A DNA stretch of 64,000 nucleotides from Chryseobacterium gleum. GTDB lineage: Bacteria; Bacteroidota; Bacteroidia; Flavobacteriales_F; PHOS-HE28. The stretch lies in contig CAMCAZ010000001.1 of NCBI GenBank assembly GCA_945872795.1, forward strand, positions 56,085 through 120,084, read 5' to 3'. The position numbers and the translations under genes were made by a program. The notes under the pieces are model-generated. The model was given only the letters and a program-made list of their open reading frames with translations, had not been told where the DNA came from and made no database searches. Below, one piece after another: positions 15,424 to 31,690 of this stretch (position 1 is the first letter of the stretch; every line of letters begins with the position of its first letter).

Positions 15424-16743
15424 TCAAACGGCCCGATGGAACTTCCAGAACGAGATGATCCCTGTGCACATCCATTTCAGATTCGCGCGGGTGCTCTTGA
15501 ACAGCAGGTCCATCAGGAAGATGCTGATCGTGAACGAGCCGATGGTGGCCCATATCGCGCCGACCGACTTGAACGGAGGGATCAGCAAATAGTTCATCCC
15601 GATGTTGACCGCCGCACCCACGACCCCGGTGAGGAGCGAGTACTTGAACAGGCTCTCATTGGTGATGAAGCTGGACTTGCCCACACCCATGTTGGTGAAG
15701 AACAAGCGGATGGCGAACAGGGAAAGCAGGACACCGGACGGACGGAAGGCCTCACCGAAGAGGAGCACCATCAAGGGTTCAGCCAGGAAGTACAGGGGGA
15801 TGGCCGTGACCAGGAACATCAGGAACATCAGGCGGTACTGGTTCAACAGACGGTCCTCATACTGTCCGTTGCCGAGGGCCTTCGCCCGGGTGATGGCGGG
15901 GGCCAGGGACTTCTGCACGATGACCGGCAGGAACCCCAGTGCCTCGATCATTTTCAAGGCATTGGAGTACTGACCCACTTCGGCATTGGCCGCCTCGGCA
16001 CCCAGTCGCGTCCGTAGCATGTCGCCGATCATGACCTGATCGATCTTGGCCTGCACATATAGGGCCATGCCGAAGATGATCAAGGGCCAGGATTGCCGCA
16101 TCAGGTAACCAGCCTCCTTGCGATCATACTTCCAGGAGCGCCAGCTGTGGCCGCCCCGCTCGTAGGCGATCACATAACCGACGGAAAGCGTCAAGGTCTC
16201 CAGCACGTAGACCCAGGCGAACCAGAGCAGTGGTGCCCCGAAATAGACCAGACCGATCTTGAACAAGGCACTGACGACGACCTGCACCATCTGCACCACC
16301 ACCGTTTGCTTGGAGCGGACCTCGGCCATGAAATACCAATCCACCACACCGAAGGGTCGGAGGAGCTCCGCCGCCGCGATGACCACCACGAGGGAGGCGG
16401 TGAGGCCGTCCATGTCCTTGAAAAGACTGGACAAGAGCACAAGTATCACGAGCAGCAAGGACCCCAGGAACTTGATGACGGCCGCGGTTCCCAGCAGGGC
16501 ATCCCTTCGCTCCGGATGTTTCACCAGGTCGCGCACCACGATCTCATCGAGGCCCATGGTGGTGAGGGCGAAAAAGATGCCCACAAAGCCTGTGGCGTAG
16601 TTGAGCTGACCGAACAGGGAAGGCCCGAGGTAGCGCGCCACCAGGATGCCCGTACCCAGAACGACCACCAGACGTACGACCCGCTCGACCAGGAGCCACG
16701 AGGTATTGGCGAAATACCTGCGAAAGCCCTCCGATCGGATCAT
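15424..16743 (-). CDS. wzx: oligosaccharide flippase (MOP superfamily, Wzx-like polysaccharide biosynthesis protein)
   Basis: 439 aa, about 12 TM helices, N-terminal ...LLVERVVRLVVVLGTGILVARYLGP... is typical of Wzx/RfbX. ATG at 16743. Confidence 0.8.
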   Translation of the reverse strand: MIRSEGFRRYFANTSWLLVERVVRLVVVLGTGILVARYLGPSLFGQLNYATGFVGIFFALTTMGLDEIVVRDLVKHPERRDALLGTAAVIKFLGSLLLVILVLLSSLFKDMDGLTASLVVVIAAAELLRPFGVVDWYFMAEVRSKQTVVVQMVQVVVSALFKIGLVYFGAPLLWFAWVYVLETLTLSVGYVIAYERGGHSWRSWKYDRKEAGYLMRQSWPLIIFGMALYVQAKIDQVMIGDMLRTRLGAEAANAEVGQYSNALKMIEALGFLPVIVQKSLAPAITRAKALGNGQYEDRLLNQYRLMFLMFLVTAIPLYFLAEPLMVLLFGEAFRPSGVLLSLFAIRLFFTNMGVGKSSFITNESLFKYSLLTGVVGAAVNIGMNYLLIPPFKSVGAIWATIGSFTISIFLMDLLFKSTRANLKWMCTGIISFWKFHRAV

Positions 16744-16758
16744 GGATGGATCGGTGGA

Positions 16759-19104
16759 CTACTTGGTGTAGTAGCCATAGCCTTCCCCGTAACCCTGGCC
16801 CGGCTTCACGTCATTGAGGAGGAGGTCGACGTTGGCGATCTTCTTATCCTGGTACATCTCGCTGATCAGGCGCAGCGCACTGCGCCGGGTAAAGCCTTGA
16901 CGGACCACATAGAGGGTCACGTCGACGTGTCGCATGATGATCACGTACTCACTGACCAGGCCCATGGGCGATGCATCCACGATGATCTGATCGTACCTGC
17001 CCCTCAACTGTGCGAACAGTTCGGTGATGCGCACGTGCTCCACCAGTTCCAATGGATTGGGAGGGATCGGCCCTGCCATGATCACATCCAGCCCGGCGAC
17101 ATCGGTCTTCTTGATGATCGTATCCAGGGATTCTTCACCGATGAGATAAGTGGAAAGACCAGGTCCTTCCGGCATTTCCAGCACCGAGGCCACGCGCGGT
17201 CGGCGCATGTCCGCATCGATCAACAGGGTACGTTTTCCACTGATGGCCATGACGGTCGCCAGGTTCAATGCACAGAAGGTCTTCCCTTCGCCACTGGATG
17301 ACGAGGTGAACCCGATGATCTGTCGCTGGGTGCTCACGTTCAGGTACTGCAGGTTGATCCTTGCCGTTCGGAAGGACTCGGCCAACATGGACTTCGGCTC
17401 ATCGGGCAGGATGCGCTTCCGCTTGCTCGTGGGGATCAACGCCAGGATCGGCAAAGGGCTCAGTCGCTTAAGCTCATCGGCATCCACGATCCGGTCATTG
17501 AAGAAGTCACGGATCAGGATGAACGCCATGGGGAGCAACAGGCCCAGGAGGAGTGCGCCGCCGAGGACCACCTTCTTGTCCGGAGCCACAGGCCCCAAGC
17601 CTGCAAGTCGCGCCTCATCGATCACCACCTTGTCCACCTGGTCGGAGGCGATGGCGATGCCGGCTTCGGCACGCTTCTCCATCAGGTAATTGTAAAGGCT
17701 CTCGCTCAGTTTGAACTTCCGTTCGATGTTCCCCAGTTTGCGCTCATTCTCGGGCAACTGGTTGAACTCATAGCCGATGCGCCCCAAGCGACGGTTCACC
17801 TCGACCAAACTGATATCGGCTTGCTGAACAAGGCTTTCAGCCGTCTGGGCCAGTGAACCGGAGAGGCTCTTCATCTTCCGCTCCATGGCGATCACCGTCG
17901 GGTTGCTCTTCACCGTGGTCAGGTTCAGGGCAGCGAGATCAGCGGACAGCTTCGTGATCTCGATCACCAAGTTGTTCAGGATGGGGTCGTCGATCCCGGA
18001 GGATGAAGGAGCAGGAACGTTCCGAAGGTCTGAGGAGGAACGGATCTTCTCCAGTACGGACTGGCAATAGCTGCGGCGTCGCACCAGCGTGGATCGCTCG
18101 TCCTCCAAGCGGCTTCGCTCTTGGAACAGTTGGTCCGAGGTTCCCGTTGCGCTCATCATCCCGCCGCTGGTGCCACGGAAACCCTCCATGGAGGTCTCCA
18201 CCAGCTTCAGTGAATCGGATACGGTGCCGATCTGCTCATCGATGAAGTTGATCGTCTTCAGCCCCTTCTTCTGTTGCTTGTACAGTTCACCTTCGATGTA
18301 GGTCTCCATCAACTTATTCAGGAAGGTGCTTTCCTTCAGCACCACCTCGCCCTTGCTGCGAAGCACCACGATGTTGCTCTTGTCGCTGAGCGGCTCGGCC
18401 AGCACCTTGCCCCGGTATTCCGTCACCAGGCCCTCCAAGCTATTGATGTAGAAGAAGTGCTCCCTGCCCGCACCGTATTTCCGGTCCGCGGGGAACTCGA
18501 TCGTGAAGCCCAGATTCTTCGCAACAAAGGGCTCTCCAATGGCCACCGTCTGGTCCACCGAATAATCCTCGATGAACTGATCCATCACCTCCTGCTTCTG
18601 CACATTGTACAGTTGCACGTTGCTTCCCTTGGCCTTCACCCGATACGTGCCGGCGGTCCTGTCCACGGATACATGGATCGGCACCCCGGTGACCTGCAAG
18701 GCAACCGTGTCCAGCTTGACGAAGAAGGGTGGATACTCGAACCGTTCCACCGTAAGGAAGTTGTAGGTCTCGTAGTAGCTGATACCGAGATCCACGCGCT
18801 TCAGTGTCTTGGTGATGTTGTTCCGCGAGGTCAGCACCGAGATCTGGTCCTCGATGTCCGTGTTGCTCTGGAGATAAGAGACGCCCTTGAGGAACTCATC
18901 CTGCCCCCCTCCGAAGGAACTGCGGCTCTTCTCGCTCATCAGCATCACGGCCTGCACTCCATACTGCTTGGGTGTGGTCTTCAAATAGGCCACTGCGACC
19001 ACCAGCGCAAGGGTGGTGGTGAGCAGGAACAACCACCACTTGGCGACGAGCTTGCGAAAGATGACCCGCAGGTCGATGGTGTCGTTGATCGGCGCTGCGC
19101 TCAT
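16759..19104 (-). CDS. wzc: polysaccharide co-polymerase / tyrosine autokinase (Wzc-like, PCP-2a)
   Basis: 781 aa; N-terminal Wzz-like periplasmic domain flanked by TM helices; C-terminal BY-kinase with Walker A (SSSSGEGKTFCALNLA) and DxD (LLIDADMRRP); tyrosine-rich tail GYGEGYGYYTK. Confidence 0.85.
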   Translation of the reverse strand: MSAAPINDTIDLRVIFRKLVAKWWLFLLTTTLALVVAVAYLKTTPKQYGVQAVMLMSEKSRSSFGGGQDEFLKGVSYLQSNTDIEDQISVLTSRNNITKTLKRVDLGISYYETYNFLTVERFEYPPFFVKLDTVALQVTGVPIHVSVDRTAGTYRVKAKGSNVQLYNVQKQEVMDQFIEDYSVDQTVAIGEPFVAKNLGFTIEFPADRKYGAGREHFFYINSLEGLVTEYRGKVLAEPLSDKSNIVVLRSKGEVVLKESTFLNKLMETYIEGELYKQQKKGLKTINFIDEQIGTVSDSLKLVETSMEGFRGTSGGMMSATGTSDQLFQERSRLEDERSTLVRRRSYCQSVLEKIRSSSDLRNVPAPSSSGIDDPILNNLVIEITKLSADLAALNLTTVKSNPTVIAMERKMKSLSGSLAQTAESLVQQADISLVEVNRRLGRIGYEFNQLPENERKLGNIERKFKLSESLYNYLMEKRAEAGIAIASDQVDKVVIDEARLAGLGPVAPDKKVVLGGALLLGLLLPMAFILIRDFFNDRIVDADELKRLSPLPILALIPTSKRKRILPDEPKSMLAESFRTARINLQYLNVSTQRQIIGFTSSSSGEGKTFCALNLATVMAISGKRTLLIDADMRRPRVASVLEMPEGPGLSTYLIGEESLDTIIKKTDVAGLDVIMAGPIPPNPLELVEHVRITELFAQLRGRYDQIIVDASPMGLVSEYVIIMRHVDVTLYVVRQGFTRRSALRLISEMYQDKKIANVDLLLNDVKPGQGYGEGYGYYTK

Positions 19105-19892
19105 CAGTTCTGTGAGTTCTGGATAACGGAGATCACGACAGCCGCCGTGCTCACGGTGGCCAGGAGGATGGTGAGCAGTTCCAGGTTCAAACGTCCCGCA
19201 CGGGCACGCAACGTGGGTACATAGATCACATCATTGGGCAGCAGGTAGTAGTACTCGGAACTGAGCACATCGGTGCCCGACATATCCAGATACAAGGCCT
19301 GCACCCCCCGATCGCTCTGCCGCATCAACTGAACGTGGGTCTTATCCGCGAACTCGTTCGGACCACCGGCCATGGCCAACGCTTCCAGTACCGTGATCTG
19401 GTTGTTGTACACAAAGTAGGAACCGGGGCGCTGCACATCGCCCAGTACGCTCACCCTGAAACTGACGAGTTTGAGGATGACCGTGGCATTGGTGAAATAC
19501 TCGTTGATCTTGCGCTGCACCAGTTCCTGGGCCTCGCCCACCGTGAGCCCCTGCACCTTGATCTTGCCCACCGTGGGCAGTTGGACGTGCCCGTTCTTGT
19601 CGATGGAGAAACCGTTCACGTAAAGCGCGGCGTCATTCAGTCCCTGGAAAGCGTTCTGTCCCTCCACATTGAAGAACCGGTGGGTCTGTTCGTCGAGACC
19701 CATCACGCGGATGGACAGCACATCGTTCACTTGGATGCGGTACTCGAACTTGCGGTTCTCGAACAGCTTGCTTGAGCCCTTGCTCAGGGAAGCGTCCTCC
19801 AGGTAATTGATGTTGCGCTTGCCCATGCAACCGGTCAATAACAACAAAGCCGGGATCAGTATCCAGCCAGAACGGGAGATCGCATTCCTCAT
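19104..19892 (-). CDS. wza: polysaccharide export outer-membrane lipoprotein (Wza-like, Poly_export + SLBB)
   Basis: Lipobox LLLTGC; YRIQVNDVLSIRVMG (Poly_export) and a later SLBB-like segment. ATG (MRNAIS) confirmed at 19892; the track start at 19958 is further upstream. The stop overlaps the wzc start (TGATG). Confidence 0.8.
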   Translation of the reverse strand: MRNAISRSGWILIPALLLLTGCMGKRNINYLEDASLSKGSSKLFENRKFEYRIQVNDVLSIRVMGLDEQTHRFFNVEGQNAFQGLNDAALYVNGFSIDKNGHVQLPTVGKIKVQGLTVGEAQELVQRKINEYFTNATVILKLVSFRVSVLGDVQRPGSYFVYNNQITVLEALAMAGGPNEFADKTHVQLMRQSDRGVQALYLDMSGTDVLSSEYYYLLPNDVIYVPTLRARAGRLNLELLTILLATVSTAAVVISVIQNSQN

Positions 19893-20004
19893 ATTAAGGT
19901 CAGACCTGTTGGGGTACACTGCAGTACACCGACCGCTCGGCGAACGTTCAAGACACAACCGGTCCAGGTCAAATATACGTTCGACCCTCAGCCCGGGTTA
20001 CGCC

Positions 20005-20199: not shown

Positions 20200-20901
20200 T
20201 CACAAAACGTCCTCGACATCGGCCTGAAAGCGGAAACCGAGCCGCTTGCCGGTGCTGAGTGGACTAGCGCTGAGCTCATTCATCTCACTGACCGTCACTT
20301 GGTTCACCTGGTCGTAGGGCGGTGCCAGAAGATCGAAGTCGAGCACATAGAGGATGATGCTGTGGAGGACCTCCCGGAGACGGTCACGATCCATCTTGCT
20401 ACCCGCGAGGTCATTGTACAGGAAGCCCAACTGCCGCTTGCCCTGCACGAAGAAATGCCCCTCCTTATTCAGGAAGATCCGGGCCACCAGGTAGCCCAGG
20501 TCCCGTTCACGATTGTACTTGAACGAGTCGCTCAGAAAATTGTAGACGTTGACCACCCCGAAGTAGCCGCGCATCTCGTCCTCGGTCAGGTAATTGGTCT
20601 TCCAGAAGCTGTGGCTCTGGTCCAGCTTGAACACGTTGGTGTGCATATGGAAGATGATGACATCTCCAGCAACGCGCGCCTCACAGGCCATCGCACCCTT
20701 GTCCAGAAAGCTGACCGCCAAGCGCTTATCATGCCTGATCACTTCCTGCTCCAGGTCCATCGATATCTCCTGAAGCACTTCCTTCAACTGTTCGAAAAGC
20801 TGCAGGGTGGCTTGATACACATCCTGCTTCATGCACGACTTGGTGCGTAGAGCAGTGATGATCAGCTCACGCGGAGCGGGGGGCACGGTCTTCTCGCTCA
20901 T
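20200..20901 (-). CDS. conserved hypothetical protein (233 aa), translationally coupled to proS
   Basis: The ATG at 20901-20899 overlaps the proS stop (TGATG). The track ORF extends a further 51 codons upstream into proS, which is unlikely to be real. No recognisable motif. Confidence 0.55.
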   Translation of the reverse strand: MSEKTVPPAPRELIITALRTKSCMKQDVYQATLQLFEQLKEVLQEISMDLEQEVIRHDKRLAVSFLDKGAMACEARVAGDVIIFHMHTNVFKLDQSHSFWKTNYLTEDEMRGYFGVVNVYNFLSDSFKYNRERDLGYLVARIFLNKEGHFFVQGKRQLGFLYNDLAGSKMDRDRLREVLHSIILYVLDFDLLAPPYDQVNQVTVSEMNELSASPLSTGKRLGFRFQADVEDVL

Positions 20902-22370
20902 CAGTAGGCCCGGGCAAAGATCACACGTTGTGCACTGGGCTTGCCGGTCACCATGCATTGGCCCGGCGTTGGGTCGCCATCCAAGGGGATACAGCGGATG
21001 GTCGCCTTGGTCTCGTCCTTCACCCGCTCCTCGGTCTGCGCCGTACCGTCCCAATGGGCGAGGATGAATCCGCCCTCCTCGATCGCCACCTTGAACTCGT
21101 CGTACGTGTCGACCGCTCGTGTGCTACGCTCGCGCATGGCCAACGCCTTCTGGTAGAGGTTATCCTGGATGGCCTGCAGCAGGTGCTCCACCTTGTCGGC
21201 GATGTCCGTCATCTGCATCACTTGCTTCTCCATGGTATCCCTTCGGGCCACCTCCACAGTACCGTTCTCCATATCGCGTGGTCCGATGGCCATACGCACG
21301 GGACAGCCCTTGAACTCGTACTCGGCGAACTTCCAACCCGGTTTCTTGGTATCATCGTCGTCGAACTTGACGGTGATGCCCTTGGCACGAAGCGCCTTCA
21401 AGGTCGGCTCCACATAGGACCTGATGGCATCCAACTGCTCTCCGCTCTTCGCGATGGGTACGATGGCCACCTGGATGGGTGCCATCTTGGGAGGAAGGAC
21501 CAAGCCGTGATCGTCGCTGTGGGTCATGATCAGGGCCCCCATCAATCGGGTGCTTACGCCCCAACTGGTGGCCCATACATGTTCCTGTTTGTTCTCCTTG
21601 GTGGTGAACAGCACGTCGAAGGCCTTGGCGAAGTTCTGACCCAGGAAGTGGGAGGTTCCCGCCTGCAGGGCCTTTCCATCCTGCATCATGGCTTCGATGC
21701 AGTAGGTCTCCTCCGCCCCGGCGAAACGTTCACTGGCGGTCTTGATACCCTTGATCACAGGCATGGCCAGCCACTCCTCGGCGAAGGTGCGGTAAACCTC
21801 CAGCATGCGCTCTGTCTCTTCAATGGCCTCGGCCTTGGTGGCATGGGCGGTGTGCCCTTCCTGCCAAAGGAATTCGGCCGTGCGCAGGAACAGGCGCGTC
21901 CGCATCTCCCAGCGCACCACGTTGGCCCACTGGTTGATCAACAAGGGCAGATCACGGTAGCTCTTGATCCAGCCCCGGTAGGTGTTCCAGATGATGGTCT
22001 CGCTGGTGGGGCGTACAATGAGCTCCTCCTCCAACTTCGCATCGGGGTCCACGATGATGCCATGGACCGGATCGCTCTTCAATCGGTAGTGGGTGACCAC
22101 CGCACATTCCTTGGCAAAGCCTTCCACGTGACTGGCCTCCTTGGCGAGATAGCTCTTGGGAATGAACAGGGGGAAATATGCGTTCACGTGCCCGGTCTCC
22201 TTGAACATGCCGTCCAGGGCCTGTTGCATCTTCTCCCAGATGGCATACCCGTGCGGCTTGATCACCATGCAGCCGCGCACATCACTGTGCTCTGCAAGAT
22301 CGGCCTTGAGCACCAGATCATTGTACCATTTTGCGTAGTCCTCGCTGCGCTTTGTGAGCATATCGGCCAT
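20901..22370 (-). CDS. proS: proline--tRNA ligase (class II, archaeal/eukaryotic-type ProRS)
   Basis: 489 aa; [27 protein letters not shown]...[15 protein letters not shown]... is characteristic of the ProS type found in Bacteroidota. ATG at 22370. Confidence 0.9.
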
Positions 22371-22468
22371 GGCCTTGAAAGTGGTATTATTTTTGTTCCT
22401 ATCCGAGCGCGGCTAAAGTACACAACCCCGCACGCCTGCTGGTGTGGAGGGTTCAACACAGAAGAACG

Positions 22469-23473
22469 ATGAACAGGTGGTCACGAGTGATACCCATGCT
22501 ACTGCTCCAGGCACTGGTGATTTCAGGTTGCGGCAGTATGCAGAACGCCACTGGCACCGTCGTGCGAGACGATGTCTACTACCTCCCTTCTACCGCTCCG
22601 GCCCCAGCCGTGGTCAACAGTTCCGTGCCGGACAAGCCGGAGGACCTTTCCCAGTTCACGGATGACTATTATGACCCCAATGCTGCCGAGCAGGTCAGCG
22701 ACCAGGGTTTCTATGACGTGGCCTATAACGACCCATACTATTACAACTATGGGCGATTCGGGTTTGGAACGACCTTGGGATACCAGACCGGGTGGGGTGG
22801 CCCGGGATGGGGCATGGGAATGGGTACGAGTTGGAACAGTGGTTATGGTTGGAACGACCCTTGGATGAGCATGAGCTATGGATGGGGCAGCCCATACTAT
22901 GGCTCACCCTATTCACCCTATGGCATGTATGCTCCCTACGGCTACTATGGCTATGGATACAATCCTTACGGAGGTGGACCGTACTACGGCCCTTGGGGGA
23001 GCTGTCAGTGTTGCTACTCCCCAGTGATCTACGGAGGAGGGAACCAAGTGATCTCCCGACATCGGACCGGCTTGACCGGTGGCGGTTCGGGCTCGATGAC
23101 CGGTCGCACGCCTGCCGGGCAGACACGCATGGTGGCCCGGGACCCCGCCGGACTTCGCCCTGCGCTCAATCCGACACCCTCCACGCGCTACAACAACCGC
23201 TCGACCACGGGGAACGGTCTCCGTGAGGTGCGTCCCGGTCAAGACCAGGTCAGACAGCCAGCCACCCGCCCCGGAACCCGGCCGAACGTAAGCTCGCCAA
23301 GCAGGGAAGGCGGCCGGCCAGCCGTCCAACAGCGGGAAGATCCGACACGCAATAGCGGATCCGACAGAGGTACGGCCGCTCCAACGCGTTCGGGTGGCGA
23401 CTCCGGCGGCAGCCGCTCCGGTGGAGGAAGTTCGGGAGGATCACGCTCAGGAGGAGGTACCAGGCCCCGGTGA
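22469..23473 (+). CDS. Gly/Tyr/Trp-rich low-complexity lipoprotein with RGG/SGG-rich basic C-terminal tail
   Basis: ATG (MNRWS) at 22469; lipobox ...LVISGCGS. A ~110-aa region is dominated by G/Y/W/P/S (GYGWNDPW, YGWGSPYYGSPYSPYGMYAPYGYYGYGYNPYGGGPYYGPWG, CQCC). It is followed by a ~150-aa R/T/P/G/S-rich tail ending GGDSGGSRSGGGSSGGSRSGGGTRPR. Confidence 0.6.
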   Translation: MNRWSRVIPMLLLQALVISGCGSMQNATGTVVRDDVYYLPSTAPAPAVVNSSVPDKPEDLSQFTDDYYDPNAAEQVSDQGFYDVAYNDPYYYNYGRFGFGTTLGYQTGWGGPGWGMGMGTSWNSGYGWNDPWMSMSYGWGSPYYGSPYSPYGMYAPYGYYGYGYNPYGGGPYYGPWGSCQCCYSPVIYGGGNQVISRHRTGLTGGGSGSMTGRTPAGQTRMVARDPAGLRPALNPTPSTRYNNRSTTGNGLREVRPGQDQVRQPATRPGTRPNVSSPSREGGRPAVQQREDPTRNSGSDRGTAAPTRSGGDSGGSRSGGGSSGGSRSGGGTRPR

Positions 23474-23487
23474 ACGATCTGCGACCC

Positions 23488-24984
23488 ATGAACAACCTCT
23501 TTCGGCGCGTGGCCATCGCGCTTGTCGGGCTCCTCTTCGTGCCTGCACTACTTGCCCAGAACGAAGTGGATGCCTTGCGTATAAGCACATCGAACCCCGG
23601 TGGCACGGGTCGAAGCACCGGATTGGCCAATGCTTTCGGCGCTTTGGGTGCCGACCCGGTCGCTGCGGGTATCAACCCTGCCGGCTTCGGCCTCTATCGA
23701 ACGAGTGAGCTATCGGTCACCCCGATGGTGGAGGTGAACGGGGTCACCTCCACGGCCTATGGGACACAGGCAGTGGACAGCAAGACCACCTTCGTGATAA
23801 ACAACTTGGCGTTGATCCTGAACAATCCCTCGAAGGGGGGGGATTGGCGCAGCGGGACCTTCGGGGTGGTGTACGACCGGCAGCAGAGCAACAACTGGCG
23901 CACCGCATCAAATGCGGAGAACGTTCCGAGCACCTTCCTGGAAGGGATGGCACTGGACGCCGACGGGATCCGGAGCGATGAGCTCTTTGACGCCCTTCCC
24001 TTTACGGCCGGTCTTGCCTGGGACACCTATGCGATCAACCTCGCCGACCCGAACGATACGTTGGGCACCACCTACTACCCCGCCATTCCGTTCGGGTCGC
24101 TGACCACCCAGGTCCATACCGTGCAGTCCAAAGGGGCATCGGCCAACACCACGTTCTTCTACTCCGGCAACTACATGGACCGGGTGTATCTGGGCCTGTC
24201 CCTGGGGCTTGCGTCACATCGTCTTTCACGTACCACCACGCACAGTGAAACGTCTGAGGACGGGACACTGGACCTGGAGAACGCGACATGGACGGAGGAT
24301 CTCAGCACCACCGGGAACGGGGTGAACGTGAAGGTCGGGGTGATCGGTCGCATCACCGATCGTTTCCGCATGGGCCTGGCCTATCACAGCCCGCAATGGA
24401 TGCAACTGACCGATGCCTTTGTGACGTCCATGGCTACCCAGTTCCGCACACCCGATGCCTTCGGTACATCACGGTATATTGCCGACTCACCGGAGTCCAT
24501 CTTCGGTTACCAGGTGAACACACCGTGGCGCCTGGTCGGGAGCGCCGCCTATATTGCCGGCGACCACGGTCTGGTGAGTGTGGATTACGAGTACCACGAC
24601 CCCCGTGGTGCACGGTTCCGACCAGCCGACGAGTTCGTCAATAGCTATGACTTCCAGTCGGAGAACACGGCCATCGTGGCATCCTTCACCCCCGTGCACA
24701 CGCTCCGCGCCGGAACGGAGTGGCGGTTCAGCAACTGGTATTATCGTCTGGGGTGGGGCATTGTCACCAACCCCTACAAGACCACTGACAGTCGGCGCGG
24801 TGATGCCTTGAAGAACTATGCCGCGGGCATCGGGTATCGCACCGACCATCTGGCTGTGGACCTTGGCATGAACCATGCCCTTCAGCAAAGCAGCACCTAC
24901 CCGTACTACCCCGACCTGGTGGAGGCCACGGTGGAGGACCGACGAAGCACCCGCTTCATACTCACGGTGAGCCTGAGGCCCTGA
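23488..24984 (+). CDS. OmpP1/FadL/TodX-family outer-membrane beta-barrel (PorV-like superfamily)
   Basis: Signal peptide MNNLFRRVAIALVGLLFVPALLAQ. The N-terminal segment GGTGRSTGLANAFGALGADPVAAGINPAGFGLY carries the FadL-type NPAG motif. Alternating amphipathic strands run to the C-terminus. The track start at 23470 is a GTG overlapping the upstream stop. Confidence 0.6.
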   Translation: MNNLFRRVAIALVGLLFVPALLAQNEVDALRISTSNPGGTGRSTGLANAFGALGADPVAAGINPAGFGLYRTSELSVTPMVEVNGVTSTAYGTQAVDSKTTFVINNLALILNNPSKGGDWRSGTFGVVYDRQQSNNWRTASNAENVPSTFLEGMALDADGIRSDELFDALPFTAGLAWDTYAINLADPNDTLGTTYYPAIPFGSLTTQVHTVQSKGASANTTFFYSGNYMDRVYLGLSLGLASHRLSRTTTHSETSEDGTLDLENATWTEDLSTTGNGVNVKVGVIGRITDRFRMGLAYHSPQWMQLTDAFVTSMATQFRTPDAFGTSRYIADSPESIFGYQVNTPWRLVGSAAYIAGDHGLVSVDYEYHDPRGARFRPADEFVNSYDFQSENTAIVASFTPVHTLRAGTEWRFSNWYYRLGWGIVTNPYKTTDSRRGDALKNYAAGIGYRTDHLAVDLGMNHALQQSSTYPYYPDLVEATVEDRRSTRFILTVSLRP

Positions 24985-25054: not shown

Positions 25055-25879
25055 TCACTTCTCCCCCATCACGCGCTCCACCACATGATCATCGACGAGT
25101 ATGCGACCGCAATGCTCGCAGACGATGATCTTCTTGTGGCTGCTGATGTCCAGCTGACGCTGGGGCGGGATGCTGTTGAAGCAACCACCGCAGCTTCCCC
25201 GCTCCACCGCCACCACGGCCAGGCCGTTGCGGGCATTGGAACGGATGCGGTGATAGGCGCTCAAGAGACGCTCTTCGATGTGCTTCGAGGCCGAATCGCT
25301 CTTCTTCTGCAGCTCCTTCTCCTCCTTCTCGGTCTCGGCGATGATATCGTCCAGTTCCTTCTTCTTCAGCTCGAGGTCCTTCTTGCGCTCATCGTGCTTC
25401 AGGCGGCTATCCTCCACCACGGACTTCTTGCCGTCGATCTGGGCTTTGGCCTCCTTGATACGCTTCTCAGCCAGTTGGATCTCGAGGTTCTGGAACTCGA
25501 TCTCCTTGGTCAGCGAATCGTACTCGCGGTTGTTGCGAACTTTGGCCTGCTGGCCTTCGTACTTCTTGATCTGGGCCTTCGCCTCCTTGATCATGTTCTG
25601 GCGGTCGTTCACCTGACCTTCCACCTCGGCCAGTTCGTCCTGCAGCTTGTTCAAGCGCGTCTCCAAGCCGGCAACCTCATCTTCCAGGTCCTGGACCTCC
25701 AGGGGAAGCTCACCACGCTGAACCTTGATGCGGTCCACCTGCGAGTCTACATGCTGGAGGCGATACAGTTCGACGAGCTTCTCGGCAACAGAGATGTCGG
25801 CCTTCAGAGCGGCGGTCTTCGCCTTGCCGTTATCCGATGCGGTCTTGGTTGCAGGAGCCTTCACGTCGGTCTTCGCCAT
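25055..25879 (-). CDS. coiled-coil protein with C-terminal C4 zinc ribbon (COG1579/DUF164-type, Nif3-associated)
   Basis: 274 aa; a long K/E/L-rich coiled coil, then ...CGGCFNSIPPQRQLDI...CEHCGRIL (CxxC...CxxC). The ATG at 25879 is 3 nt after the Nif3 stop. Confidence 0.75.
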   Translation of the reverse strand: MAKTDVKAPATKTASDNGKAKTAALKADISVAEKLVELYRLQHVDSQVDRIKVQRGELPLEVQDLEDEVAGLETRLNKLQDELAEVEGQVNDRQNMIKEAKAQIKKYEGQQAKVRNNREYDSLTKEIEFQNLEIQLAEKRIKEAKAQIDGKKSVVEDSRLKHDERKKDLELKKKELDDIIAETEKEEKELQKKSDSASKHIEERLLSAYHRIRSNARNGLAVVAVERGSCGGCFNSIPPQRQLDISSHKKIIVCEHCGRILVDDHVVERVMGEK

Positions 25880-25882
25880 GGG

Positions 25883-26977
25883 TCAAAAATGGTATATGGG
25901 ATCCGTGACGATCTCCGTCAAACGGACGGCAAAGGTAGGGAAAAGTTCCCCTAACCGGCGCTGGATCAGCCGCATGGTGAATTGCTCGCTGCCGTAGTGC
26001 CCGATATCGGCCAGCAACAGCCTCCCATCCACATCGAAGAATTCGTGGTATTTCACATCGCCCGTGATGTAGGCATCCGCCCCTGAGGCCAAGGCCTTGC
26101 CCAGCAGGAAGGCCCCGGAACCACCGCACAGGGCCACCCGGCGGATGGGCCTGCCCAATGGCTTGGTGTGCCTGATGGCTTTCAGGCCGAACACAGCCTT
26201 TAGCCGGGCCAGAAAAGCCTCCTCGTCCAGGGCCTCCGCCCATTCACCCACCAGCCCACTGCCTATCCCTTGGTGTGTGTTCGCGAGGGGGATCAGGTCG
26301 AAGGCGATCTCCTCGTAGGGATGCACGGAACGCATGGCCGCCAGAACGGACCGCTCCCGGGCCAGGCTGTAGATCACCTCCACCCGCACTTCGGGCTCGT
26401 GGTGCTGCACCCCTCGCTCCCCCACATGCGGGTCGGTGCCTTCCCCGGCCCGGAACGTACCGGTGCCGGCCACATTGAAACTGCACTCATCATAGGCGCC
26501 GACATGCCCGGCGCCTGCACTGAACAAGGCTTGTCTGAGGACGTCTGCATTGGCCATCGGTACGAACACCACCAATTTACGGAGCTGGCCAGGCTTGGGA
26601 TCGAGCACCTGCAAAGGCTTGAGCCCCAAGGCAGCGGCGATCTCCGCGTTGACCCCGTCCAGCACATTGTCCAGGTTGGTATGGATGGCATAGATGGCGA
26701 TGTTGTGCCTCAGGGCCGCAATCACGGTACGCTCCACATATCCACTGGCCACCAGGCTCTTCAGGCCCTTGAAGATCACCGGGTGGTGCGTGATGATCAG
26801 GTTGCAGCCATGTGCGGCGGCCTCCTCCACCACTGCTTCGGTGCAATCCAGGCAGACCAAGGCCGACGTGAGCTGCGTTTGCGGATCGCCCACCTGAAGC
26901 CCCGAATTGTCGTAATCCTCCTGCAGGGAGCGGGGGGCCCAGGCCTCCAGCGCCGTTGTCACGTCTTTGATGCGCAT
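25883..26977 (-). CDS. Nif3-like dinuclear metal-centre protein (YqfO/YbgI family)
   Basis: 364 aa; N-terminus MRIKDVTTALEAWAPRSLQEDYDNSGLQVGDP and C-terminal ...GDVKYHEF... are typical of the NIF3 family. Confidence 0.85.
   Translation of the reverse strand: MRIKDVTTALEAWAPRSLQEDYDNSGLQVGDPQTQLTSALVCLDCTEAVVEEAAAHGCNLIITHHPVIFKGLKSLVASGYVERTVIAALRHNIAIYAIHTNLDNVLDGVNAEIAAALGLKPLQVLDPKPGQLRKLVVFVPMANADVLRQALFSAGAGHVGAYDECSFNVAGTGTFRAGEGTDPHVGERGVQHHEPEVRVEVIYSLARERSVLAAMRSVHPYEEIAFDLIPLANTHQGIGSGLVGEWAEALDEEAFLARLKAVFGLKAIRHTKPLGRPIRRVALCGGSGAFLLGKALASGADAYITGDVKYHEFFDVDGRLLLADIGHYGSEQFTMRLIQRRLGELFPTFAVRLTEIVTDPIYHF
25924..25937 (-). promoter_or_regulatory. candidate internal -7 promoter element (TACCTTTG + CCGTCC) inside the 3' end of the Nif3 gene, upstream of the zinc-ribbon gene
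   Basis: The reverse complement of ggacggcaaaggta (25924-25937) is TACCTTTGCCGTCC; same extended motif as at 4406-4419 and 20153-20169. Confidence 0.35.
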
Positions 26978-27013
26978 CTTTCGCCTTGAATGATCGTTCC
27001 CGCAAAGTACGCG

Positions 27014-28072
27014 ATGCTGTTCCGAAGGTTGGTGCTTTTGCCGTTCACAGCCGTTTATGGAGGTGTGCTACGCATCCGTCATGCCCTGTACGACCATGGC
27101 CTGCTGAAGCGCACACGGCCCGAAATGCCCACCATCGCCATCGGCAATCTGGCGCTGGGCGGCACGGGGAAGACACCCATGCTGGAATTGGTGCTTCGGG
27201 TGCTCGAGGGCATGGGACCCGTTGCCACGCTGAGCCGGGGGTATGGCCGCGAGGGAACGGACATCCATGAGGTGCATGCGGTGGACAACGCGCAATACAG
27301 TGGTGACGAACCCCTACAGGTCAAGCGGAAGTTCCCCGCGGCAAGGGTCTTTGTGGGGGCCGACCGTGTGAAGGCCATCACGCACATCGGGCAGCAGGTC
27401 CCCGGAGTGCGTGCCGTGGTCCTGGACGACGCCTTGCAACACCGGGCGCTGGATGCCGGGCTGAATATCCTGCTCACCACCTGGCAGCGGCCATGGTGCG
27501 ATGATGCCCTGGTACCTGCCGGACGCTTGCGGGACCTCCCCCTGCGAGCCAAGGCAGCGAAGGTGGTGGTGGTCACCAAATGCCCGGCACTGCCTTCCTC
27601 CCAGGAACAACAGCGTTGGCGTGCCAAGCTTGAGTTGGCGGCAGAACAGCCCTTGTTCTTCTCCGGGATCCGGTATGGACCGCCAAGTGCCATCGATGGA
27701 ACGGAGATCCATGCGGGAGATGGACCGATGGGCGCGCTGCTGGTCACGGGCATCGCCGATCCGGCCCCCCTGCTGGCCCATGTGAGGACCCTGGCCATCA
27801 CCGTCGAACACCTGGCCTTCCCGGACCACCACGCATTCACCCGCGCCGACCTTCAGCACCTCGCCGAGCGATACGCTAATTTCGCGGCCGGTCCGAAAAT
27901 GCTGGTCACCACGGAGAAGGATGCCGCGCGGCTCTCCTCCTCCATTGCCGGCAGCCCCCTCGAAGGGCTGCCATTGGCGGTGGTCGGCATGCAGGCCGTG
28001 ATCCTGAACGAACCGGAACGATTCTCCGACCTCATCCGCCGACATGTTGAACCGCATCCATCGCATCGCTGA
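27014..28072 (+). CDS. lpxK: tetraacyldisaccharide 4'-kinase
   Basis: MLFRRLVLLPFTAVYGGVLRIRHALYDHGLLK...IAIGNLALGGTGKTP (P-loop) matches the LpxK N-terminus. ATGs at 26990 and 27014; homology begins at 27014. Confidence 0.85.
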   Translation: MLFRRLVLLPFTAVYGGVLRIRHALYDHGLLKRTRPEMPTIAIGNLALGGTGKTPMLELVLRVLEGMGPVATLSRGYGREGTDIHEVHAVDNAQYSGDEPLQVKRKFPAARVFVGADRVKAITHIGQQVPGVRAVVLDDALQHRALDAGLNILLTTWQRPWCDDALVPAGRLRDLPLRAKAAKVVVVTKCPALPSSQEQQRWRAKLELAAEQPLFFSGIRYGPPSAIDGTEIHAGDGPMGALLVTGIADPAPLLAHVRTLAITVEHLAFPDHHAFTRADLQHLAERYANFAAGPKMLVTTEKDAARLSSSIAGSPLEGLPLAVVGMQAVILNEPERFSDLIRRHVEPHPSHR

Positions 28073-28857: not shown

Positions 28858-30225
28858 ATGCGCATCTGCCTGTTCATCCCCATGGCCCTATCGGTCACTG
28901 TCTCTGCACAGGACAGCCTGAACGTGAGCAAGCTCTTTCATTGGGATGACCCCACCATTCCAGCAGGGACCACGGACTTCCAAAATCAGTACAACGATGT
29001 ATGGGGGTATGCGGCCGATGGACGCGAATACGCTTTCCTGGGAAGTTCACTCGGGGTACATGTGTTCGATGTGACCGACCCCGTTAACAGTATGCTCATC
29101 GACCAGGTACCTGGCCGTTTCAGCGGTGTGGGGGTCACCCACCGCGACTACAAGGTCTTTGGGCATCACCTGTTCGCCACATGCGACCAGGGAGCGAGTT
29201 CACTGCAGGTCATGGATCTTCAGTACCTGCCTGACTCGCTGCATGTGGTGTACGACAGTGATTCACTGCTGGTCCGAGCCCACAACATCCAGGTCGATAC
29301 CATCGGCGAGCGGTTGTACACCTGCGGCGGCAGCACCCAGTTCAGCGTCTACGACATCAGCGATCCTTCGAGCCCCTCGCTGTTGAGCAATTGTGAAGCT
29401 GACATCCCGTGGTGGGGTGAGGTGGTGGGTTATGTCCACGATTGCTTCGTGCGTGACAACATCGTCTGGTGCAACGATGGCGATGGCATGCATGTGATCG
29501 ACTTCACGGATGCCGAAAACCCGGTGATCCTGGGCTCGCTTACCAGCTATGCCGGGCAGGGCTATAACCATAGTGGTTGGATGAACGATCAAGGCACCTT
29601 GTACGCCATGGCGGATGAAACCCATGCATCACCGCTCAAATTCGTGGACGCCACCCAGCTGGATGATCTGGAGGTGATCTCCACAGTGACCTCGGCAGTG
29701 CATCCAACCTCCATCCTGCACAACCCCTTCTTCACCGGAGACCTGGTGCACGTGGCCTACTACTATGATGGATACTGGCTTTGGAACCTGGCCGACCCCT
29801 CGCAACCCATCCTGATCGGCTATTATGACACGAGCACCGAAGCGAACACCAACAGCTACAGGGGCGCCTGGGGGACCTATCCCTTCCTGCCGAGCGGGCA
29901 TGTTCTGGTGAGCGACATGCAGACCGGCCTGTGGGTGCTGAACATCGACCAGGCGACCAATGCTGAAAGCGCTGCCGCTGCCCCGGCCTTCCGGGTCTCG
30001 CCCACGCTTACACAGGGCCCGGTGACGGTGACGAACTTATCCGGGTCGGGACCGTCGCAGATCGACGTTTTCGATGCCTCCGGATCACAGGTCATGGATG
30101 CCATCACCCATGACGCATCCCATCAACTGGACGTGAACGACCTGCGCGACGGCATGTACATCGTGCGTGTCACCTCAGGAAGATCGGCTCACACGCAACG
30201 CATCGTAATCACCGGCAGGCCATGA
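28858..30225 (+). CDS. choice-of-anchor-B-like (LVIVD-repeat beta-propeller) protein with type-A T9SS C-terminal sorting domain
   Basis: Signal peptide; N-terminal YNDVWGYAADGREYAFLGSSLGVHVFDVTDP is typical of choice-of-anchor B. C-terminal ...VSPTLTQGPVTVTNL...DGMYIVRVTSGRSAHTQRIVI looks like a Por_Secre_tail. Confidence 0.6.
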   Translation: MRICLFIPMALSVTVSAQDSLNVSKLFHWDDPTIPAGTTDFQNQYNDVWGYAADGREYAFLGSSLGVHVFDVTDPVNSMLIDQVPGRFSGVGVTHRDYKVFGHHLFATCDQGASSLQVMDLQYLPDSLHVVYDSDSLLVRAHNIQVDTIGERLYTCGGSTQFSVYDISDPSSPSLLSNCEADIPWWGEVVGYVHDCFVRDNIVWCNDGDGMHVIDFTDAENPVILGSLTSYAGQGYNHSGWMNDQGTLYAMADETHASPLKFVDATQLDDLEVISTVTSAVHPTSILHNPFFTGDLVHVAYYYDGYWLWNLADPSQPILIGYYDTSTEANTNSYRGAWGTYPFLPSGHVLVSDMQTGLWVLNIDQATNAESAAAAPAFRVSPTLTQGPVTVTNLSGSGPSQIDVFDASGSQVMDAITHDASHQLDVNDLRDGMYIVRVTSGRSAHTQRIVITGRP

Positions 30226-31673
30226 TCCATTGGAGTGAACGTTGGGACCTGGTGGTGGGCCTGGAGGTGCATGCCCAGCTCAACACCCTCAGCAAGGCAT
30301 ACAGCACCGACCCCAACGCGTACGGCGATCACCCGAACACCAACGTGAGCGTGCTCACGCTGGGGCATCCGGGGACGCTTCCGGTGGCCAACCGGAAGGT
30401 GGTGGAACATGCCATCCGGATCGGGCTGGCCACGCATTGCAGCATCGCCCCGTGGATGCACTACGCCCGCAAGAACTACTTCTACCCCGACCTGCCCAAG
30501 GGCTACCAGATCACGCAGGACCATACCCCGATCTGCACCAAGGGCTACGTGATCATCCCCGTGGAAGGCGGTGAGAAGCGCATCGGCATCACCCGCATCC
30601 ACATGGAGGAGGATGCCGGCAAGAGCATCCACGACGTGGACCCCTTCAACACCCTGGTGGACCTGAACCGAGCCGGTGTCCCCTTGGTGGAGATCGTGAG
30701 CGAGCCGGACATCCGCAGCGGACAGGAGGCCTACGACTATCTCGTGGAGATCCGTCGACTGGTCCGCTACCTGGACATCTGCGATGGCAACATGGAAGAG
30801 GGCAGCCTGCGGTGCGATGCGAACATCAGCCTGCGACCGAAGGGCGTGGAGGCCTTCGGGACGCGTTGTGAGGTGAAGAACATGAACAGTTTCCGCAACG
30901 TGATGCGGGCCATCGAGTTCGAGGCGCAGCGCCAGAGCGAGATCCTGGATGCCGGTGGGGTGATCCACATGGAGACGCGCACCTTCGACGCCGGCAAGGG
31001 CACCACGGTCGGCATGCGCAGCAAGGAACTGGCGCATGATTACCGCTACTTCCCCGAGCCGGACCTGCAGCCCATCACCGTGAGCGAAGCTTCCAAGGAG
31101 GCCATCCGACGCGCGATGCCGCCCCTTCCCCGCGAGTTGCGTGAGAAGTACACCAAGGAACTGGGACTGAGCGACTATGACGCCGGGATCCTCACGGAGG
31201 ACAAGGCCACTGCGCTTTACTACGAGGCCGTCATCGCGCTGACGCCCAACTTCAAGGGTGCCGCCAACTGGGTGATGGGTGATGTGCGCAGTTGGATGAA
31301 CGAACGGGGACTGACCATGGAGCAGTTCCCCATCCGTGCCGAACGCCTGGCCGGACTGGTGCACCTGATCGATGCCGGCCAAGTGAGCCACACCATCGCC
31401 AGCCAGAAGCTCTTCCCCCTTATGCTGGAGGACCTCAGCGCCACGGCCGAACAGCTCGCCCTGAAGCACGACCTGGTGCAGAGCACCAATGAGGACGAGA
31501 TCATCGCCATCGTCCGCCAGGCGATGGCCACCTACCCGGAGAAAGTGGAGGCCTACCGCAGTGGCAACAAGGGCCTGCTGGGCCTCTTCATGGGTGAGGT
31601 GATGAAAGGCACCAAAGGCAAAGCCGACCCCAAACGCGCCAATGAAGTGGTGCGCCGGACCCTCGAGAACTAG
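30222..31673 (+). CDS. gatB: Asp-tRNA(Asn)/Glu-tRNA(Gln) amidotransferase subunit B
   Basis: 483 aa; WDLVVGLEVHAQLNT...KNYFYPDLPKGYQITQ... is typical of GatB. ATGA overlap with the upstream gene. Confidence 0.9.
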   Translation: MIHWSERWDLVVGLEVHAQLNTLSKAYSTDPNAYGDHPNTNVSVLTLGHPGTLPVANRKVVEHAIRIGLATHCSIAPWMHYARKNYFYPDLPKGYQITQDHTPICTKGYVIIPVEGGEKRIGITRIHMEEDAGKSIHDVDPFNTLVDLNRAGVPLVEIVSEPDIRSGQEAYDYLVEIRRLVRYLDICDGNMEEGSLRCDANISLRPKGVEAFGTRCEVKNMNSFRNVMRAIEFEAQRQSEILDAGGVIHMETRTFDAGKGTTVGMRSKELAHDYRYFPEPDLQPITVSEASKEAIRRAMPPLPRELREKYTKELGLSDYDAGILTEDKATALYYEAVIALTPNFKGAANWVMGDVRSWMNERGLTMEQFPIRAERLAGLVHLIDAGQVSHTIASQKLFPLMLEDLSATAEQLALKHDLVQSTNEDEIIAIVRQAMATYPEKVEAYRSGNKGLLGLFMGEVMKGTKGKADPKRANEVVRRTLEN

Positions 31674-31690
31674 ACCCAACCGACAAGACC

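Follow-up and report, generated by a model that had tools for sequence, protein, structure and literature searches.

Recent cryo-EM describes the outer membrane of Bacteroidota as built around barrel-lipoprotein complexes, among them that of BamG, a FadL-like barrel of the BAM complex without a transport role (PMC12611786, PMC12578637). The extended N-terminus of BamG blocks its lateral opening, and the lipidated N-tail of BamH sits in a groove of the barrel (PMC12611786, PMC12578637). The BamG2-BamH2 operon (BT1785/BT1786) is a further precedent of a FadL-like barrel with a lipoprotein (PMC12611786, PMC12578637). PorV, PorQ and PorP-SprF of type IX secretion are further barrels in the outer membrane of Bacteroidota, and they too hold proteins as partners. 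The gene pair described here was found in a window of 64,000 nt (the whole stretch of DNA analysed) and looks like another barrel-lipoprotein complex of this outer membrane. It is neither described nor named in the literature searched. The lipoprotein is without family assignment and was not found in literature on Lentimicrobium locus tags or on disordered, Tyr-rich or Gly-rich Bacteroidota lipoproteins.

The lipoprotein gene is located at 22469..23473 on the + strand and encodes 334 aa with the signal peptide, or 314 aa (33 kDa) once mature. The gene of the FadL-family outer-membrane barrel (498 aa) follows at 23488..24984, also on the + strand. Both frames, and the lipobox, are as given in the preliminary description. 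Possible starts are 22442 (GTG) and 22469 (ATG) for the lipoprotein, and 23470 (GTG) and 23488 (ATG) for the barrel. The start at 22469 is preferred because the n-region then has a normal positive charge; one public gene call begins at 22496 and gives 325 aa. The TGA stop of the lipoprotein gene (23471-23473) overlaps the alternative GTG of the barrel gene, as reported earlier; the ATG is 14 nt on, not 15. Upstream is the divergent proS (prolyl-tRNA synthetase, 20901..22370, - strand), assigned by synteny and by Pfam ProRS domains in L081. The 98 nt that separate proS from the lipoprotein gene contain TATTTTTG (22388..22395, + strand), read from the sequence as a possible, weakly indicated -7 element of Bacteroidota type. 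It fits TAnnTTTG, the consensus -7 element of Bacteroidota sigma-A promoters. A sigma-70 scan detected no promoter in this spacer, and sigma-70 and terminator scans across the locus gave nothing useful.

The lipoprotein begins with a type II signal peptide, MNRWSRVIPMLLLQALVISG followed by C (22469..22531, + strand). The lipobox is LVISG/C; the lipidated Cys21 (codon 22529-22531) is invariant in 30 homologues. All features that follow are on the + strand. The anchor-proximal motif VRDDVYYLPS (22562..22591) has D34, D35, Y37 and P40 invariant in alignment A1, and a [DE][VIL][YF] core lies 10-15 residues past the lipid Cys in 67/67 homologues. The most conserved motif block, aa 66-100 (22664..22768), reads DDYYDP...YYDxAYNDPYYYNYGRFGFG and has many invariant columns. 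A G/Y/W/P/S low-complexity block, delimited by composition and alignment A1, occupies aa 101-178 (22769..23002; G22 Y16 P9 S8 W7). It opens with a conserved GWxxGWxGPGWGMGMG and continues in indel-rich aromatic/Gly repeats. The block had been put at about 110 aa; it is real, with 87% G/Y/W/P/S/N/M over residues 95-178, and about 80-85 aa long. The transition region, aa 179-231 (23003..23161), carries CxxCYxPVxxGG (C179, C182), HR(P/T) and RDPxGLRP in alignment A1; within the close clade C179, C182, Y183, P185, R199, R224, P226 and L229 vary little or not at all. The CQCC cluster reported earlier is present, and of it only the CxxC pair C179/C182 is conserved, within the close clade only (30 of 67 homologues phylum-wide).

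The basic tail, aa 192-334 (23042..23470), was recognised by charge and composition and confirms the earlier report of an R-rich tail of about 150 aa with SGG repeats: 143 aa, net charge +15, pI 12.0, 25 Arg versus 1 Lys. It contains PSR/PTR motifs, (S)GG/RSGG repeats and a conserved C-terminal ...RPR with R332 and R334 invariant, and ends in GGSRSGGGSSGGSRSGGGTRPR. Of the 67 homologues, 62 terminate in Arg and 2 in Lys. Tail length ranges from 96 to 434 aa, a more than 4-fold spread. Charge is segregated in the 67 homologues: the head is Tyr-rich and acidic (median -11) and the tail basic (+8 to +55), as blocks of pI 4 and pI 12. By AF2, mean pLDDT is 48 and pTM 0.18, with no fold and no secondary structure; the lipoprotein is predicted to be fully intrinsically disordered. 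The surface-export signal, defined by the empirical rule used for Bacteroidota surface lipoproteins (a minimum of two acidic residues no more than 6 aa from the Cys; PMC12578637), occurs in 0 of 67 homologues. General O-glycosylation of the Ser/Thr-rich tail was rejected: D[ST][AILVMT] hardly occurs at all, the median count per protein being 0.

Full-length lipoprotein homologues of about equal size and with invariant motifs number 196; the family has 306 cluster representatives in 1.84 billion. In comparison with L001 the whole gene has a dN/dS of 0.215 and no indels. Values are 0.485 for aa 1-65 (the signal peptide/linker stretch) and 0.012-0.17 for every later segment: 0.012 for aa 66-100, 0.136 for the low-complexity block, 0.098 for the transition region and 0.166 for the tail. 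This substitution pattern shows the gene to be under purifying selection. Tandem Repeats Finder detected no meaningful DNA array in the gene, so only the protein, not the DNA, is of low complexity; a compositional bias from GC-rich repeats free of purifying selection, considered earlier, is not what was found. By hhalign the close and distant (Bacteroidales-type) clades are joined with a probability of 98.3% and E 1.3e-14: the aa 66-100 block is homologous to DDYYDYAYSSRIRRFH..YYxPYYTNxYWYDYNPYxWG of Bacteroidales-type proteins, and VRDDVYYLPS aligns to YDD[IV]YYS of the distant clade. No match was obtained in Pfam (to E 0.1) or NCBIfam for the window lipoprotein, nor in Pfam at E up to 1 or in NCBIfam for four distant homologues; YXWGXW, glycine-zipper and DUF assignments are ruled out on these grounds. 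The relation to YXWGXW-repeat lipoproteins (presumably Pfam PF12779) suggested earlier is therefore abandoned. The glycine-zipper type of SlyB, OsmB or Pcp was rejected likewise. The GWGMGMG runs look zipper-like by eye.

The barrel has a signal peptide with predicted cleavage after ALLA (23488..23556, + strand), which would leave Gln24, invariant in alignments A2 and A3, as the mature N-terminus. In Bacteroidota, proteins cleaved by signal peptidase I typically begin with Gln. A conserved N-terminal extension, QNEVDALRISTS, and the hatch domain follow (23557..23706, + strand; NPAG at 23674-23685). They are the most conserved parts of the protein (extension 0.71, hatch 0.76, mean 0.58). Q24, E26, D28, G39, R42, N63 and P64 are invariant in the close-clade alignment of 38 homologues. 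The NPAG motif reported earlier was found as INPAG, residues 62-66; neither N63 nor P64 varies among 38 homologues of the close clade and 20 of the distant one. In the model the barrel shows a FadL fold of 14 strands, closest to solved FadL-family structures. Periplasmic turns are of only 2-5 residues; extracellular loops are long, with a net charge of -17. By DSSP the third strand is broken at residues 135-136, the feature considered being the S3 kink that creates a lateral opening.

The window barrel scores 17.7 bits against Pfam PF03349 (Toluene_X), below the gathering threshold of 29.7; many homologues carry a precomputed match to this family. Against the PDB, the distant-clade profile reached TbuX (E 8.9e-7), PaFadL and CymD and did not reach BamG or PorV; the close-clade profile gave nothing relevant among PDB sequences. 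The relationship to FadL/TodX holds at profile level because the homologues match PF03349 and the distant-clade profile reaches TbuX. The barrel shares with FadL and TodX the N-terminal hatch with its conserved NPA motif. It differs from the FadL/TodX/TbuX transporters (PF03349) in being about 70 residues longer, in ending ...SLRP without a C-terminal aromatic residue, and in being always encoded behind a disordered lipoprotein. In the alignment with TbuX its N-terminus appears to be about 10 residues longer before the GxGA motif, and this part is conserved (QNExDALR). A weak PorP_SprF signal in Pfam had E 0.018, and neither PorV nor PorP_SprF was the closest structural or sequence match. These comparisons are best explained if the barrel is a paralogue within the FadL family, separate from both BamG and PorV.

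The lipoprotein and barrel genes are linked. The former is directly upstream of the latter in 67 of 67 readable loci, which bears out the earlier proposal to look for such pairs elsewhere; the gap has a median of 22 nt and is at most 60 nt in 50 of 57. NCBI locus tags of the two genes are adjacent. Of the loci that include DNA upstream of the pair, nearly all have proS in the corresponding place. Conserved downstream neighbours, assigned by Pfam/NCBIfam and synteny, are a CdsZ-like zinc-ribbon protein (25055-25879, - strand), Nif3 (25883-26977, - strand) and LpxK (26990-28072, + strand). The order of proS, the pair, the zinc-ribbon protein, Nif3 and LpxK is kept in Flavobacteriales, Bacteroidales and Lentimicrobium, so that the pair and its fixed housekeeping surroundings are shared by at least two orders. 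Vertical inheritance within Bacteroidota best explains this pattern. The best 80 of 389 matches in a scan of genome collections are all MAGs. Given their adjacency at the same conserved spot in many Bacteroidota, the two proteins almost certainly act jointly in the cell envelope; a physical complex, its topology and a function for the pair are inferred.

The reading preferred here, tentatively and at less than even confidence, is that the pair is an operon for an obligate, vertically inherited outer-membrane complex, which would organise or tether the envelope constitutively rather than serve as an accessory adhesin. The lipid anchor would stay in the inner leaflet of the outer membrane, since the lipoprotein is without a surface-export signal. 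The anchor-near motifs DDVY, DDYYD and YYDxAYNDPYYYNYGRFGFG may fold onto or into the barrel, by analogy with the BamH N-tail on BamG. The Gly/Tyr/Trp block and basic tail would form a flexible polyampholyte that reaches into the periplasm. The invariant basic C-terminus could dock on an anionic partner (peptidoglycan, phospholipid or the acidic N-terminus of the barrel itself) or, alternatively, shield the chain from tail-specific proteases. Several points count against parts of this model. The short periplasmic turns offer little docking surface for such a complex, the acidic loops would be a better match for an extracellular basic tail, and the spread of tail lengths argues against a fixed-length periplasmic spacer. 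A dedicated barrel could also bypass the export-signal rule, against the inner-leaflet placement, and the strong conservation of the NPA hatch is also compatible with genuine transport.

An envelope-tethering complex invites comparison with Braun's lipoprotein Lpp and other outer-membrane tethers: as in Lpp, a lipoprotein of the outer membrane has a conserved basic residue at its C-terminus, which could reach peptidoglycan. Lpp is a short helical trimer linked via a C-terminal Lys, whereas here a long disordered chain has a dedicated barrel. To our knowledge, Bacteroidota lack Lpp. Covalent peptidoglycan linkage of Lpp type (C-terminal Lys, L,D-transpeptidase) was rejected because the prevailing C-terminal Arg cannot be linked in that way.

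Surface display is unlikely. The barrel would anchor or export the lipoprotein, and the Gly/Tyr/Trp block with the RGG-like tail would form an adhesive, gel, condensate or amyloid-like coat outside the cell. The Gly/Tyr/Ser-rich block and Arg/Gly/Ser tail resemble FUS ([G/S]Y[G/S] and RGG) and resilin, the YS(A/S)PSRS motifs recall resilin-like repeats, and the pI 4 and pI 12 blocks could self-coacervate. The long extracellular loops could bind the basic tail, barrels with surface partners have precedents that include BamG-BamH, and among the carriers are many MAGs of floc or biofilm dwellers, from activated sludge and digesters. However, the export signal is missing from all 67 proteins, and the synteny is that of a vertically inherited housekeeping locus, not of an adhesin or matrix locus. 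A naked Arg/Lys-rich tail of 100-430 aa would probably be very protease-sensitive outside the cell, and export through a FadL lumen plugged by a conserved hatch is not obvious. Composition also resembles that of the functional amyloids curli CsgA and Fap. A functional amyloid system, with imperfect repeat units and a secretion partner of CsgG or FapF type, was rejected: there are no curli/Fap-type repeat units, and the AF2 prediction has no beta-rich element. The interpretation in the preliminary description, that the barrel exports or anchors its partner or that the two form a surface adhesive or matrix, is on balance partly supported.

An uptake system is improbable to a similar degree. The barrel would let in a hydrophobic nutrient (a fatty acid, an aromatic compound or a lipid, for example) as a working channel of FadL type, and the lipoprotein would be an accessory that captures the substrate or hands it over, by analogy with SusC/SusD. 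We know of no lipoprotein partner needed by FadL, TodX or TbuX. The longer, conserved N-terminus is as in the non-transporting BamG, the neighbours of the pair are not catabolic genes, and a fully disordered, highly charged lipoprotein would be an odd carrier for hydrophobic substrates.

It is very unlikely that the pair is a divergent unit of BamG/BamH or BamG2/BamH2 type, docked on BamA as an aid to biogenesis of outer-membrane proteins or lipoproteins; its Tyr/Gly-rich disordered region would then act like the Tyr/Gly/Asn-rich loop EL3 of BamA. The barrel resembles BamG in its extended conserved N-terminus relative to FadL. However, identity in structural alignments is only 12-13%, and BamH, a surface lipoprotein, has two folded domains and an export signal, whereas the lipoprotein here is predicted to be disordered and lacks such a signal. 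Orthology of the barrel with BamG (BT4367, Fjoh_1412, PgBamG) was rejected: profiles A2 (E up to 1) and A3 (E up to 10) match no BamG chain in the PDB, although a fold search found BamG structures of B. thetaiotaomicron, P. gingivalis and F. johnsoniae there, from the same orders as the carriers. That the lipoprotein ORF is a chance frame or a decaying gene, as a local GC of 62-67% and numerous overlapping spurious ORFs on both strands might suggest, has next to no probability and is refuted by the selection on it, its homologues, and its position and operon spacing, conserved across orders.

A wider reading of the pair, quite unlikely, is that of a phylum-wide structural component of the envelope not recognised before, in which a dedicated FadL-type barrel nucleates a lipid-anchored, charge-segregated Tyr/Gly-rich disordered polymer as an elastic or gel-like, self-coacervating layer. 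This would be a functional periplasmic replacement of the missing Lpp tether, or the surface matrix or amyloid-like adhesin long sought in floc-forming Bacteroidota. Few bacterial lipoproteins are at once conserved, fully disordered and equipped with short linear motifs. Finding the binding partner of this one would test structural roles of disordered polyampholytes in the Gram-negative envelope and would assign a function to a FadL paralogue now labelled fatty-acid or aromatic transporter by annotation pipelines. Experiments are possible in a cultured carrier, the isolate Lentimicrobium saccharophilum TBC1, in which the same arrangement of the pair is called.

As read from the open reading frames, the lipoprotein gene extends from 22469 (ATG) to 23473 on the + strand, with an in-frame GTG at 22442, and the barrel gene from 23488 (ATG) to 24984, also on the + strand, with an in-frame GTG at 23470. 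This two-ORF layout agrees with the preliminary description, as does the overlap of the lipoprotein's stop (TGA, 23471–23473) with the barrel's GTG; the spacing from stop to ATG is 14 nt, not 15 nt. A lipoprotein start at 22496 is used in one public gene call; the start at 22469 is kept because the later one would remove the positively charged n-region. The signal peptide is MNRWSRVIPMLLLQALVISG, with the lipobox at its end, directly before the Cys. The mature lipoprotein is 314 aa long and contains 18.8% Gly, 10.5% Ser, 9.9% Pro, 9.2% Tyr and 8% Arg (25 Arg, 1 Lys), with Ile, Leu, Val and Met together only 10%. G/Y/W/P/S/N/M account for 87% of residues 95–178. The pI is 4.05 for the head (Cys21 to residue 191), in which 23% of residues are aromatic, and 12.0 for the tail (192–334), whose net charge is +15. 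No DNA tandem repeat was found beneath the low complexity or charge pattern when the gene sequence was scanned.

The lipoprotein is a real gene under selection. Homologues (196) are of similar length (about 290–410 aa) at 30–95% identity. Compared with L001, the locus of the closest genome (a Flavobacteriales MAG, barrel 94% identical to that of the window), the overall dN/dS is 0.215; by segment it is 0.012 for the DDYYD...GRFGFG block, 0.136 for the Gly/Tyr/Trp block, 0.098 near the Cys motif and 0.166 for the basic tail (barrel, 0.086); no indels separate the two lipoprotein genes. Searching 1.84 billion cluster representatives with a profile yielded 306 relatives, 95 of them at E <= 1e-10, and all six mid-range matches inspected have the same architecture. 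The homologues and dN/dS speak against a poorly conserved ORF free of purifying selection, as considered in the preliminary description, and an artefact is excluded. Among 30 aligned homologues the lipid Cys is invariant, and invariant or near-invariant motifs are VRDDVYFxPS, DDYYDP, YYDMAYNDPYYYNYGRFGFG, GWQxGWNGPGWGMGMG, GPWGxCxxCYxPVxIGG, HRPS, RDPxGLxP and the C-terminal PSRSGG...GGSR...RPR, separated by low-complexity stretches rich in indels. The AlphaFold2 model built with the alignment has a mean pLDDT of 48, a pTM of 0.18 and no secondary structure outside the signal peptide; given the conserved motifs, the most fitting description is therefore an intrinsically disordered protein in which short linear motifs are conserved.

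The lipoprotein falls outside all described families. Neither the window protein nor its distant relatives match Pfam or NCBIfam, and the tie to YXWGXW-repeat lipoproteins once considered possible failed when tested. Assignments as glycine-zipper lipoprotein, BamH, Lpp and curli/Fap subunit also failed. The likeness to low-complexity domains of the FUS or resilin type does not go beyond composition. Bacteroidota BamA has a flexible Tyr/Gly/Asn-rich extracellular loop, so by analogy Tyr/Gly-rich disordered segments may be a recurring outer-membrane feature of Bacteroidota.

The barrel was modelled confidently with AlphaFold2 (pLDDT 90.6, pTM 0.82). The fold ranking shows a clear gap down to CymA (19.3) and PorV (18.5), and Foldseek is in agreement, with BtBamG, FadL, FjBamG, TodX and TbuX retrieved (E 1e-13 to 4e-16; identity 10–13%). 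The close-clade (Flavobacteriales-type) sequence profile found nothing relevant in the PDB; the distant-clade (Bacteroidales/Lentimicrobium-type) profile matched TbuX (8.9e-7), a P. aeruginosa FadL homologue (3.6e-4) and CymD (0.058), and neither a BamG nor a PorV chain appeared up to E 10. The Toluene_X Pfam score is 17.7 bits for the window barrel, under the threshold of 29.7, and the domain is present on many homologues. From fold ranking, Foldseek and profile matches, the barrel thus counts as a genuine member of the FadL family; it is a paralogue separate from BamG and is not PorV-like; of the earlier FadL/PorV-superfamily assignment, only the first half holds. It is a new subfamily of this known family. 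The model has 14 strands (DSSP string), the third broken at residues 135–136, the place of FadL's S3 kink. The barrel has long extracellular loops (L2 measures 59 aa and includes three helices), which are acidic (net -17); periplasmic turns comprise 2–5 residues. Across 58 homologues (mean conservation 0.58), conservation is highest in the hatch (0.76) and in the first 12 residues of the mature protein, QNEVDALRISTS (0.71). By alignment, the mature N-terminus appears about 10 residues longer than that of TbuX; the same kind of extension sets BamG apart from transporters and in BamG passes through the lateral opening (PMC12578637, PMC12611786). The C-terminus (24970–24984) is ...TVSLRP with R497 invariant, lacking the aromatic residue of the classical outer-membrane beta-signal.

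A barrel-profile scan with one genome per species confirmed 389 relatives, and the best 80 of these 389 loci were fetched. Homologous pairs do occur elsewhere in Bacteroidota: among these loci, wherever the barrel is at least 37% identical and upstream DNA is available, the lipoprotein HMM matches the directly upstream ORF, contrary to a pair not kept together. At 31–37% barrel identity (Bacteroidales, Lentimicrobium, Parvicella, others) a longer lipoprotein (about 420–670 aa) of the same plan takes the upstream position: a lipobox; YDD[IV]YYS 10–15 residues past the Cys; a linker that is acidic and rich in Tyr; DDYYDYAY[SA]SR[IL]RRFH...YYxPYYTNxYWYDYNPYxWGTSIYLGY and a Gly/Tyr/Trp/Asn block; and a long basic tail of Ser/Thr/Pro/Asn/Arg in which YS(A/S)PSRS motifs occur, ending in ...GGRR. 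The two clades are joined across the head by hhalign (probability 98.3%, E 1.3e-14). In 67 lipoproteins from the fetched loci, the head carries a charge of -24 to +2 (median -11), the tail measures 96–434 aa with charge +8 to +55 (median +16), and 62 chains terminate in Arg. A median of 22 nt separates the lipoprotein from the barrel start, and in 50 of 57 loci this distance does not exceed 60 nt. Basic tails of distant lipoproteins carry lineage-specific tandem peptide repeats (loci L073, 3914–5899; L049, 3835–5955; L062, 1685–3649), for example TPGRTTPTx about 12 times (Lentimicrobium sp.), a 20-aa unit RPESRQPVQARPETSQPTQV roughly 6 times and STRPADN roughly 8 times; repeat expansion is therefore how the tail evolves, with composition and C-terminus retained. 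A 267-kb contig labelled 'MAG: Bifidobacterium breve' (CALQEU020000001.1, locus L051) carries the Bacteroidota order proS, lipoprotein, FadL barrel, nearly identical to relative locus L047; the record is probably mislabelled or mis-binned.

Because operon linkage is tight across orders, lipoprotein and barrel are very likely coupled in function, and they probably form a physical complex. The pair is grouped with the Bacteroidota barrel-lipoprotein outer-membrane complexes, as a variant of them. The function that we infer, tentatively, is that of an envelope module. The anchor-proximal motifs of the disordered lipoprotein would fold onto the barrel, by analogy with BamG-BamH, the closest mechanistic precedent, from the same phylum. 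Surface exposure was scored in the BAM study (PMC12578637) by a minimum of two acidic residues no more than six positions from the Cys, a pattern present in 0 of 67 lipoproteins; the default prediction from sequence is therefore a periplasm-facing anchor. With that topology the tail would be a flexible Pro-rich polycation, long enough to touch peptidoglycan or another anionic partner. That its basic C-terminus is invariant hints at a dedicated role for the chain end, which may be docking or shielding from tail-specific proteases that recognise apolar C-termini. Against the envelope module stand the tiny periplasmic turns, the acidic extracellular loops (net -17) and the unconstrained tail length; all three suit a surface location better and keep alive the surface display first proposed, unlikely as it is. 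Genuine transport by the barrel with the lipoprotein as accessory, backed by sequence affinity to transporters and by conservation of the NPA hatch, is likewise doubtful. A BAM-associated role is improbable, since barrel structure and N-extension fit it but sequence, export signal and the partner's fold do not.

Among the fetched loci, proS is divergent and upstream of the pair in nearly all, and a CdsZ-like zinc-ribbon gene, nif3 and lpxK lie downstream in both Flavobacteriales and Bacteroidales. This conserved neighbourhood indicates an old, vertically inherited and probably constitutively expressed module. In the spacer common to proS and the lipoprotein gene, the putative element TATTTTTG (22388–22395) fits the Bacteroidota -7 consensus and is a weak candidate promoter element. 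The layout recurs in cultured Lentimicrobium saccharophilum TBC1: proS, a 602-aa protein with no Pfam match, barrel TBC1_111689, TPR, Zn-ribbon, NIF3, LpxK. The evidence that the pair is real is robust; the pair is widespread and lacks annotation, and a cultured carrier allows it to be tested.

The TPR protein (~496 aa, opposite strand) lies between barrel and zinc-ribbon gene in TBC1 (locus L081, 9504–10994) and about 16 Bacteroidales-type loci; this insertion belongs to the Bacteroidales/Lentimicrobium clade and is absent from the window's clade. A 284-aa ORF (20200–21054, -) with no Pfam or NCBIfam match follows proS closely in the same orientation, overlaps its 3' end as called, and is kept in place in most Flavobacteriales loci (56–92% identity) and several distant ones (32–53%). 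A polysaccharide export cluster (15424–19958, -) upstream of the conserved block comprises a Polysacc_synt flippase (15424–16743, -), a Wzz/GNVR/AAA_31 tyrosine-kinase-type co-polymerase (16759–19104, -) and a Wza-like Poly_export/SLBB protein (19104–19958, -), the last two syntenic only inside the close Flavobacteriales clade. A 496-aa ORF (30189–31679, -) with no Pfam match at E <= 0.001 has relatives at similar position in several related loci. A 455-aa protein (28858–30225, +) combines an LVIVD repeat with a C-terminal sorting domain for type IX secretion (Por_Secre_tail), so the organism encodes cargo of that system.
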